Below are positions 1 to 515 of a stretch of 516 bases of DNA, in pieces. Every line of letters starts with the position of its first letter. Position 1 is the stretch's first letter. Below the pieces are notes generated by a model, which saw nothing but the letters and a program-made list of their open reading frames with translations, did not search any database and was not told where the DNA came from. The position numbers and the translations under genes are program-made. The stretch lies in assembly GCF_003334815.1 (NCBI RefSeq), contig NZ_QOWO01000129.1. One strand, written 5' to 3'. This DNA is from Escherichia coli (lineage in GTDB: Bacteria > Pseudomonadota > Gammaproteobacteria > Enterobacterales > Enterobacteriaceae).

Positions 1-113
1 TATGCAAGATTTGCCTGAACAGCACGATTCTGCATGATGTCGATTTGTGCGATTGCGTCCTTCTGCTGATCACCGGTTGGCTGATAAGTGGTGTTAAAAG
101 AAAATGCGCTCAT
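1..113 (-). CDS. N-terminal ~37 codons of a protein-coding gene (hypothetical protein); gene continues leftward beyond position 1
   Basis: ATG at 113..111 on the minus strand, preceded by AGGAGG (118..123) with a 4-nt spacer. An in-frame stop lies upstream at 149..147, so this ATG is the first start in the frame, and the frame stays open to position 1. Translation: MSAFSFNTTYQPTGDQQKDAIAQIDIMQNRAVQANLA. I do not recognise the family. The plus-strand frame 3 is also open over 3..131 but gives a Cys-rich peptide with no start, so the minus strand is favoured. The gene is absent from the supplied ORF track, presumably because it is edge-truncated. Confidence 0.55.
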   Translation of the reverse strand, partial: MSAFSFNTTYQPTGDQQKDAIAQIDIMQNRAVQANLA

Positions 114-123: not shown

Positions 124-143
124 GTGTTTAATGTTTTCAGCCC

Positions 144-158
144 CCATCACCCGTTGAG
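144..158. repeat. Direct repeat copy 1: CCATCACCCGTTGAG
   Basis: Matches 220..235 (CCATCACCCGTTTGAG) apart from one extra T. The copies start 76 bp apart, in the region upstream of the minus-strand gene. Confidence 0.8.
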
Positions 159-172
159 TTTCGGGAGCCGCG

Positions 173-188
173 GTTTTGACGTTTTGCG
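173..188. repeat. Tandem octamer GTTTTGAC-GTTTTGCG
   Basis: Two adjacent 8-mers differing at one position. The second copy starts the TTTTGCGG motif that recurs at 327..334, as a variant at 503..511 and inverted at 293..300. TTGACG (176..181) resembles a -35 hexamer, but I found no convincing -10 at 16-18 bp spacing. Confidence 0.55.
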
Positions 189-219
189 GGGACCTGCCGT
201 TTGTTCCCTCCGGTATTAA

Positions 220-235
220 CCATCACCCGTTTGAG
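220..235. repeat. Direct repeat copy 2: CCATCACCCGTTTGAG
   Basis: 15/16 identity with 144..158, with a single T insertion. Candidate paired protein-binding sites; function not established. Confidence 0.8.
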
Positions 236-292
236 AACCTTCGCCGCAAGGGGCATCACTGCCACGACCGGAAACGACTGTCCGGGGGCAGA

Positions 293-334
293 CCGCAAAA
301 GTTTTTGCCTGCTTTTGGGCAAAAAGTTTTGCGG
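293..334. repeat. 42-nt imperfect palindrome / hairpin-capable inverted repeat
   Basis: Arms 293..311 and 316..334 pair as 293-300 with 327-334 (8 bp), one G/G mismatch at 301/326, 302-309 with 318-325 (8 bp), and two G-U wobbles at 310/317 and 311/316, around a CTTT loop (312..315). That is 16 Watson-Crick pairs. No U-tract follows on either strand, so it does not look like an intrinsic terminator; an operator-type dyad or RNA hairpin is more likely. Confidence 0.85.
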
Positions 335-339
335 GATGT
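327..339. repeat. Direct repeat TTTTGCGGGATGT (left copy; partner at 503..516)
   Basis: Near-identical to TTTTGCCGGGATGC at 503..516 with one extra C. The two copies flank the GC-rich domain. The core CGGGATGT (332..339) is also the reverse complement of ACATCCCG (489..496). Confidence 0.75.
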
Positions 340-489
340 ACATTTCACCCCTGGACTGGCGGAGACGGTTGTGGCTGTCTGTGCCCCCGGCGACAGGGAC
401 TCATACGGGTGTGTGGCACCGGACACAACAACGGGCAGGGACCCGCCGCAACGACGAAGAGCGCGTGCGCGAAACGGCGTTGCCCCTCA

Positions 490-515
490 CATCCCGGCGG
501 CCTTTTGCCGGGATG
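490..515. other. GC-rich stem-loop (9-bp stem, 8-nt loop); function undetermined
   Basis: 490-498 (CATCCCGGC) pairs perfectly with 507-515 (GCCGGGATG), with 7 of 9 pairs G-C, around loop GGCCTTTT. The window ends at 516, so a plus-strand U-tract cannot be checked. There is no U-tract on the minus-strand side (the reverse complement of 480..489 is TGAGGGGCAA). Confidence 0.7.

Follow-up and report, generated by a model that had tools for sequence, protein, structure and literature searches.

Single-stranded-DNA promoters of the F plasmid are the closest described systems to the locus analysed here. Frpo1, originally described by Masai and Arai, is such a promoter and is needed in vivo for the early expression of ygeA in transconjugants; the genes downstream of it have been named ygeA and ygeB, and leading-region genes are silent in established plasmids (Couturier 2023). 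Its function is also covered by Wen 2025 and by a 2026 bioRxiv preprint, where the later naming of these elements as class 1 ssDNA promoters, ssp1a and ssp1b, is found. It is already known from the literature that F Frpo1 and Frpo2 are transcribed by sigma-70 RNA polymerase only from the single-stranded form, with early expression in the transconjugant. The class 1 elements ssi1-ssi3 of the IncI1 plasmids ColIb-P9 and pESBL have the same role as F-type elements, upstream of ssb, psiB and ardA, and have the apical hairpin in common with the F type (TGTCCGGGGG..CAAAAAGTTTTG..CCCCTGGAC). The putative Frpo* candidates of Salmonella (Samuel 2024 Supplementary Table 2) likewise consist of a long hairpin before leading-region genes. 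Short repeated motifs upstream of plasmid establishment genes are also known from the Reg576 operators of p576 and the ArdK/ArdR repeats of pKM101, although those sites are duplex DNA, serve a trans-acting repressor and occur at several promoters, whereas the motif discussed below lies in a single-strand hairpin and varies among the modules of one plasmid.

The window, i.e., the whole stretch of 516 nucleotides of Escherichia coli DNA that was analysed, is on sequence grounds orthologous to the class 1 single-stranded-DNA promoter Frpo1/ssiD of the F plasmid. Thousands of enterobacterial plasmids contain matching sequence, the top matches being 98.6% identical and lying in IncF leading regions, and the window aligns over the whole module with D90178 and with Frpo1 and Frpo2 of NC_002483 (nhmmer, 317-335 bits for the two F modules), and the F ssiD sequence given in Supplementary Table 2 of Samuel 2024 aligns with the window from the first repeat copy through the 3' flank. 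Like F Frpo1 (Frpo/ssiD, ssp1a), it is located between hok/flm and ygeA-ygeB and next to oriT, has the transferred-strand orientation and a hairpin of about 320 nt, and carries two direct copies and one inverted copy of a short motif, the two elements aligning end to end. From this orthology with F Frpo1 we infer the same ssDNA-promoter activity for the window. When a phage collection was searched with the window there was no match, and Rfam returned no relevant family, its sole match being a chance plant miRNA model with 20.5 bits against a gathering score of 197. A double-stranded promoter scan of the window gave no sigma-70-type sites.

In two annotated IncF plasmids (L001 and L002), the order is traM, the oriT side, an SLT transglycosylase gene, a DUF932 gene (ygeB), a 98-aa gene (ygeA), the window, hok, psiA, psiB, a ParB-like gene and ssb, with the ygeA-like coding sequence at 5817-6113. 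F DNA enters the recipient 5' end first and oriT lies at lower coordinates, so the plus strand of the window is the transferred strand; since the ygeA-like gene is on the minus strand, the plus strand is also its template. The Shine-Dalgarno sequence of this gene, GGAGG, is the complement of 118-122. The gene and the copies of the motif are placed in the window as follows:

1-113, minus strand: 5' end of the ygeA-like gene of the leading region (full length 98 aa; ATG at 113-111).
144-158, plus strand: direct repeat copy 1, CCATCACCCGTTGAG, with the core TCACCCGTTGAG at 147-158 (repeat finder, alignment).
220-235, plus strand: direct repeat copy 2, CCATCACCCGTTTGAG, in the 5' arm of the hairpin, pairing with 400-413.
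400-413, plus strand: inverted third copy, CTCATACGGGTG at 400-411 plus 412-413, pairing with copy 2.

An initial annotation had described a pair of 15/16-nt direct repeats 76 bp apart in what should be the promoter region of the minus-strand gene, and on both points it was right. The repeat finder confirmed the pair as two identical 12-nt sequences, CCATCACCCGTT, which occupy 144-155 and 220-231 in direct orientation and have their starts 76 nt apart; copy 1 is extended by GAG (156-158) and copy 2 by TGAG (232-235), and the two are identical at 15/16 positions, with one additional T in copy 2. The promoter in question is the hairpin promoter Frpo/ssiD, which precedes the ygeA-like gene. The third, inverted copy had been overlooked; the repeat finder gives it as an inverted match of 224-240 vs 395-411. 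Exact direct repeats of at least 12 nt were obtained in 24 of 2000 dinucleotide-preserving shuffles of the window (approx. 1%). The repeat is therefore only modestly unlikely by chance in the window alone, and the case for it rests on conservation. A 68-aa ORF spans both copies, which it reads in different frames; this ORF was rejected as a real gene because it has no family match and because the indels found inside it in homologs are not multiples of three.

The conservation was followed in 57 full-length homologous modules (54 unique), gathered from IncF plasmids of E. coli, Klebsiella, Salmonella and Shigella, from genome contigs of Pantoea, Erwinia, Edwardsiella, Cedecea, Raoultella and others, and from metagenome contigs. 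Both direct copies are present in all 57 modules, which belong to many enterobacterial genera, and the copies are 76 nt apart in 46 of the modules and 75 nt apart in a further 8. The expectation that the two copies and their spacing would be kept in homologs is thus borne out (75-76 nt in 54/57), and neither conservation of one copy alone nor a spacing left to drift was found among the 57 modules. In the distant set, which comprises the 28 homologs with less than 80% overall identity to the window, the copy 1 core is 99% and the copy 2 core 98% identical to the window, with 75% for the arm separating the copies, 70% for the inverted partner, 36% for the gene-side flank and 34% for the hairpin tip. 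The direct copies are the best-conserved segments of the module, and because they are better conserved than the partner of copy 2, pairing alone is insufficient as an explanation. The homology between modules from diverse loci starts at position 144 of the window, which is copy 1; on the gene side of copy 1 the modules are unrelated to one another, and this side bears the ribosome-binding site of the following gene. The repeat is genuine, is under functional constraint and lies within the F-type Frpo (ssiD, class 1) promoter as one of its components; the element itself is already known. A mention of the motif or of the repeat was not found in the searchable literature.

A search for further copies, which the initial annotation had proposed, found none outside Frpo modules in 12-40 kb of three plasmid regions (up to 2 mismatches), and within the modules the motif is always present as two direct copies and one inverted copy; it is not a dispersed operator. 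The ColIb-P9 ssi elements differ from the F type in having another lower stem and no TCACCCGTT(T)GAG motif, either direct or inverted. The motif is accordingly a feature of the lower stem of F-type modules and no general requirement of ssDNA promoters. The Salmonella Frpo* candidates contain a related motif, CCATCTCTC[GA]GTGAG, with an inverted partner, but they have a single direct copy at the hairpin foot and are without copy 1 and the lower arm. An origin of Frpo* by deletion between copies 1 and 2 was considered and rejected, since the 5' flank of Frpo* aligns with the upper portion of the lower arm of F-type modules, and Frpo* elements are accordingly shorter versions and not clean deletions.

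The hairpin that surrounds copy 2, and the elements beside it, have the following positions:

158-475, plus strand: long imperfect hairpin of the transferred strand, 318 nt, the Frpo1/ssiD body (dG -113 kcal/mol, z = -8.2).
176-181, plus strand: TTGACG, conserved, in the lower 5' arm; -35-like, with no -10 partner at 16-19 nt.
293-334, plus strand: A/T-rich palindrome at the hairpin tip, with arms 293-309 and 318-334; common to the ColIb-P9 ssi elements and replaced in other lineages.
476-489, plus strand: conserved single-stranded 3' flank of the hairpin, GGCGTTGCCCCTCA.
490-515, plus strand: small G+C-rich hairpin in which 490-498 pairs with 507-515, the stem being preserved by compensatory changes in homologs.

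When the fold of the window was projected onto the alignment of 54 sequences, 86.5% of the pairs were canonical, vs 38-48% in slid controls, in which the partner column was shifted by 1-3 positions, and compensatory changes were seen at 21 pairs, vs 6-16 in the same controls. This excess of canonical pairs and of compensatory changes argues that the hairpin is selected as a structure. Copy 1 ends precisely on the first paired base of the hairpin, of which it is the single-stranded 5' foot, and in the sense of the transcript it lies about 25-30 nt before the ribosome-binding site of the following gene. The conservation of 476-489 is 0.90-0.95, in a sample that was partly picked using that very sequence as the search pattern. 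There is no T-run after the 490-515 hairpin on either strand.

The modules fall into three types according to the sequence of the copies, where the partner is the inverted copy that pairs with copy 2:

Type a (the type of the window): copy 1 TCACCCGTT, copy 2 TCACCCGTTT, partner ACGGGTG.
Type b: copy 1 TCATCTGTT, copy 2 TCACCTGTTT, partner ACAGGTG.
Type c: copy 1 TCATCTTTT, copy 2 TCACCTTTTT, partner usually ACAGGTG.

F Frpo1 is of type c (TCATCTTTT in copy 1, TCACCTTTTT in copy 2) and differs in this respect from the type a of the window (TCACCCGTT) by allelic variation only. The two copies change in parallel: substitutions recur at matching positions of both copies, and the partner shows a compensating change for only one of these substitutions. 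In IncF lineages, CCCG has become CCTG and then CCTT in both copies alike; in one module (L081), TCAC has become TCAT in both copies, its type-c copy 2 reading TCATCTTTTT; and in a divergent module (L025_6811), both copies read CTTTCGTT while the partner remains CTCAAACGGATG. In Frpo2 of F, type-c copies face a type-a partner. Types a, b and c are found together on single plasmids, which excludes a trans-acting protein of single specificity as the cause of the matching and leaves a constraint or homogenisation that works within the module. The difference between TT in copy 1 and TTT in copy 2 is preserved in all modules, the length of the partner fitting copy 2, and the persistence of this one-base difference speaks against frequent exchange between the copies. 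The parallel change may result from selection for matching, from local conversion or from shared ssDNA mutational hot spots. Modules on one plasmid do exchange sequence with each other, as mixed haplotypes were seen.

The positions of the -35, -10 and +1 of Frpo are not given as text in Couturier 2023 and its supplement, Samuel 2024 and its supplement, Wen 2025, the Virolle 2020 review, Fomenkov 2020, Val-Calvo 2018 or the 2026 preprint. The -35/-10 assignment used here is one that we infer from the sequence, as distinct from published coordinates, and it involves four features of the two hairpin arms:

231-236, plus strand: TTGAGA, invariant and paired; -35-like (5/6 matches), made up of the 3' end of copy 2 and the next base.
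253-260, plus strand: 5'-arm side of a mismatched bubble that is conserved among the modules, GCATCACT; candidate -10 region.
352-357, plus strand: TGGACT (TGGACA in most homologs) in the 3' arm; a second -35-like hexamer, paired, 17 nt from the bubble's other side.
376-384, plus strand: 3'-arm side of the mismatched bubble, TGTCTGTGC.

The pairs 253-384, 254-383, 255-382 and 256-381 are canonical in 17-67% of the sequences, vs more than 90% for the flanking pairs, and the pairs of 280-283 with 353-356 are 100% canonical. TTGAGA stands 17 nt from the bubble on the 5' arm. On this side of the bubble most homologs have an A at -11 at a spacing of 17-19 nt (CATCAC, TAAACG, CAAAGA), whereas the 3'-arm side is mostly without an A at -11 at the allowed spacings (CTGTCT, TTGTCT). 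In the 1990 ssiD entry, D90178, TTGAGA-17-CATACT is the best sigma-70 match, with a score of 10.1 and the next at 6.2, and it probably corresponds to the boxes as originally drawn. CATACT occurs in the 1990 entry only, the complete F sequence and every other module reading CATCAC(T), which is a weak -10 match; the near-consensus -10 of the 1990 entry may be a sequencing difference. That copy 2 carries the -35 is weakly favoured over the 3'-arm reading, and we would give it about an even chance of being correct. The explanation as a whole, namely that the repeat is a component of Frpo in which copy 2 is the upstream part of the promoter and copy 1 is kept matched to copy 2, seems to us somewhat probable.

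According to this explanation, the transferred plus strand would fold in the recipient into the 158-475 hairpin, in which copy 2 (220-235) and the inverted copy (400-413) would make up one stem helix and copy 1 (144-158) would be single-stranded at the foot. Host sigma-70 RNA polymerase would use the hairpin as a promoter, and ygeA would be transcribed before the complementary strand is synthesised. The end of copy 2 would provide the -35 (TTGAGA), the bubble of 253-260 and 376-384 would be a pre-opened -10, and the 5' arm would act as the non-template strand; polymerase would begin on the 3' arm, pass round the loop and go on through the 5' arm, copy 2 and copy 1 into the gene. A promoter in a hairpin can be read from either arm and the polymerase still travels in the same direction, towards ygeA. 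Copy 1 would be an unpaired duplicate that selection keeps matched to copy 2 of the same module. The likeliest cause of the matching would be that both copies are complementary to one shared strand, which could be the 3'-arm partner or a nascent RNA or DNA made from one of the copies, e.g., during unwinding and refolding of the hairpin or, speculatively, handover of a primer.

Two results on related elements bear on the part assigned to copy 2. The Cas9-protecting Frpo fragment of Samuel 2024 ends at GGGAC, which is at about position 399 of the window, so that this fragment includes neither copy 2's partner nor any of the lower 3' arm. As it works in this form, it speaks against a need for double-stranded TTGAGA, or else for read-through from upstream promoters. 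The validated ssDNA promoters of ColIb-P9 are without the motif, and this counts against the motif as a part of the promoter.

Another reading is that the same element holds a promoter that faces the opposite way, with the 3' arm as the non-template strand and copies 2 and 1 as an early transcribed leader. The -35 would then be TGGACT/TGGACA (352-357), or TTGCGG beside the A/T-rich tip as the UP element, the -10 would be near 375-380 or at TGGAC, and RNA synthesis would begin on the 5' arm and proceed directly down it. TGGACA agrees with the consensus at 5/6 positions, is kept in nearly all modules, is fully paired and is also present in the ColIb-P9 ssi elements; the working construct of Samuel 2024 retains exactly the apical part and omits the copy 2 helix; and the hairpin tip is the only tract of the module that would suit the A+T-rich UP element described in the same study. 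However, most homologs have no A at -11 within 16-19 nt on the 3'-arm strand, as already noted for CTGTCT and TTGTCT, the spacing is 20-23 nt in Frpo2-type modules, position-weight-matrix scores on this strand are low, and the far better conservation of copy 2 than of its pairing partner is left unexplained, so we regard the opposite orientation as rather unlikely. Whichever promoter assignment holds, the copies are transcribed, and their role could then lie in the mRNA, where the leader copies CUCAA(A)CGGGUGAUGG would be recognised repeatedly by the ribosome or an RNA-binding factor and would aid the translation or the release of a transcript produced from single-stranded DNA. The 3' end of 16S rRNA, AUCACC, is complementary to GGUGAU; a host-invariant target such as this fits the near-invariance of the copies across genera, and copy 1 is always found about 25-30 nt before the Shine-Dalgarno sequence of the following gene. 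On the other hand, GGUGAU itself is not kept, as most genera have GGUGAA in copy 2 and IncF types b and c have GAUGAU in copy 1, and it would account for just 5-6 of the 12 invariant bases. The leader has no conserved RNA structure or covariation (-9.2 kcal/mol, covariation term approx. 0), and a trans-acting target does not explain why the copies change in parallel within a module, which together make a role in the mRNA improbable in our view.

The initial annotation had put forward a different reading, in which the spacing of roughly seven helical turns serves the cooperative binding of a regulator to double-stranded DNA. A pair of nearly identical sites, set at a constant distance upstream of a gene, does look like operators through which the minus-strand gene is repressed or activated, and the silence of leading-region genes in established plasmids would agree with it. 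The 76-nt spacing, however, is set by the length of the lower hairpin arm, the silencing is already explained by the loss of the hairpin on conversion to double strand, and the scan of the window found no double-stranded promoter of sigma-70 type. In the 12-40 kb plasmid sequence searched, the motif is restricted to Frpo modules and is always accompanied by the inverted copy that pairs with copy 2, and single plasmids carry types a, b and c side by side; we consider an operator pair very unlikely. Inspection of the consensus sites of IHF, CRP, LexA, DnaA, CsrA, sigma-32, sigma-E, ops, Chi and the F nic site gave a fit of at most 5-7 bases, with the invariant CCCG unexplained, and these candidates were rejected. 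The other suggestions of the initial annotation, iteron-like elements and recombination half-sites, fared no better: there are only two direct copies and no array, and the neighbourhood offers neither a rep gene or origin nor a recombinase context. A neutral relic of duplication, homogenised by gene conversion, belongs to the same group of explanations, and it has on its side that the copies evolve in concert and that modules on one plasmid exchange sequence. A conservation of 99% beside a flank of 36% is not expected of a neutral leftover, however, and the one-base length difference between the copies has never been evened out; outside the 16-nt core, moreover, the 76-nt units are dissimilar (score -16 vs a shuffle mean of -14.5), and a tandem duplication of the 76-nt unit was rejected on this ground. 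Iterons, half-sites and a relic, taken together, are the least probable of the explanations weighed here.

Returning to the explanation in which copy 2 is the upstream part of the Frpo promoter and copy 1 its matched duplicate, a more specific form of it can be proposed. The three copies could be a cis device in which a strand synthesised on one direct copy, or paired with it, moves to the other, so that copy 1 has to equal copy 2. In a first, speculative version, refolding of the hairpin would displace the nascent RNA from copy 2, and this RNA would re-anneal at copy 1, beyond the hairpin, and prime DNA synthesis at that point; in a second, equally speculative one, the 3' arm would toggle between copies 2 and 1. 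Even with both versions counted jointly, we think that such a device is doubtful. If it is true, the firing of an ssDNA promoter would be tied to the handover of a primer or to the release of the messenger, a step that is undescribed for F-type Frpo.

To the description of these elements the present analysis adds a testable detail, namely a motif of 12-13 nt that is present twice in direct orientation and outdoes the putative promoter boxes and the hairpin tip in conservation. Copy 1 is nearly invariant, sits at the foot of the hairpin and changes in step with copy 2, which makes it reasonable to test it by mutation. If copy 1 is necessary, models of hairpin use by polymerase, SSB and the replisome would need an additional step; if it is dispensable, the lower stem and the repeat could be omitted from minimal ssDNA-promoter designs. 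Frpo elements provide the first burst of anti-defence and SOS-inhibition genes as resistance plasmids enter a new cell, and they are in this way central to plasmid establishment.

The module, by which we mean the Frpo unit with its hairpin on the transferred strand, is found at a further position on IncF plasmids. On the Klebsiella IncF plasmid L174, where modules lie at 19989, 25464 and 28767, a third full F-type module is present beyond the ygeA and ssb positions, and such a module also occurs in L175-L179. The gene it precedes is small and hypothetical, and next come genes for DUF3560 and a SAM-methyltransferase. Its repeat motif is the variant of the window (type a), even when the other two modules of the same plasmid are of type b. 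Among the homologs, the hairpin tip (window 289-347) exists in at least three interchangeable versions, while the lower stem and the repeat are constant across all of them:

Version 1: A/T palindrome CAAAAGTTTTTG..CAAAAAGTTTTG, shared with ColIb-P9
Version 2: a longer tip, of the Klebsiella and Serratia type
Version 3: a short GCGCGGTTTACCGCG tip, of the Pantoea, Erwinia and Cedecea type

Conserved sequence continues 3' of the hairpin. The flank at 476-489, which is single-stranded, reads GGCGTTGCCCCTCA and includes GTTGCCC. These letters are CCCGTTG of the first direct-repeat copy (147-158) spelled backwards rather than complemented, so that the two flanks have nearly the same letters when read outward from the hairpin foot; the likeness may be a coincidence. 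Just 3' of the module, the following feature was found:

490-515, small G+C-rich hairpin

Its sequence varies among genera, with the stem preserved through compensatory changes (e.g. CATCCCGGC/GCCGGGATG, GTGCCGGC/GCCGGCAC, AGTCCGGC/GCCGGACT). An ordinary terminator was considered for this hairpin and rejected, since no T-run follows it on either strand. Just past the 3' end of the window, CCGGGAGCGCAGGTCACGGCGCGACAG (6516-6545 of the annotated IncF plasmid L001) is nearly identical to GGGAGCGCAGGTCACGGCGCGACAG, the 3' end of the ssi elements of ColIb-P9 (IncI1 class 1 ssDNA promoters), and therefore the unit common to F-type and IncI-type modules reaches beyond the window.

One open reading frame covers the repeat itself:

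137-343, minus strand, 68-aa ORF spanning copy 1, copy 2 and one half of the hairpin

Many plasmid entries in GenBank name its product "single-stranded DNA-binding protein", RefSeq gives "hypothetical protein", and no family match was obtained for it in NCBIfam. The frame is shifted by indels between homologs, and copy 1 and copy 2 are in different reading frames within it. The ORF is probably not a true gene but an erroneous prediction over the Frpo hairpin, with a name propagated between records.

When read in the mRNA, the motif (144-158 and 220-235) is CUCAA(A)CGGGUGAUGG, whose GGUGAU is complementary to the 16S rRNA 3' end (AUCACC). This complementarity is not preserved in every lineage, and the real Shine-Dalgarno sequence always follows about 25-30 nt after copy 1 in the transcript.

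In D90178, the 1990 ssiD entry of F, window 254-260 corresponds to GGGGCATACTGCC, giving a near-consensus -10 (CATACT). The same positions read GGGGCATCACTGCC in the complete F sequence (L181, NC_002483, about 7630-8024) and in all 56 other modules, and D90178 further differs by two additional bases, a C in copy 1 and an A close to the hairpin tip. A sequencing difference may thus be the source of the "canonical" Frpo -10. Samuel 2024 reported that a Frpo fragment driving acrIIA4 protected a plasmid from Cas9; this fragment (supplementary file 11) stops at GGGAC, about window 399, and is without the inverted copy and the entire lower 3' arm. This could mean that expression does not need the lower stem, or else that native promoters contributed by read-through. 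Within the stem, three conserved features were observed:

253-260 with 376-384, mismatched bubble
231-236, TTGAGA, fully paired -35-like hexamer on one arm, 17 nt from the bubble
352-357, TGGACT/TGGACA, fully paired -35-like hexamer on the other arm, 17 nt from the bubble

Since both hairpin orientations would direct the polymerase to the same gene, use of the Frpo element from the one arm or the other is possible in principle.
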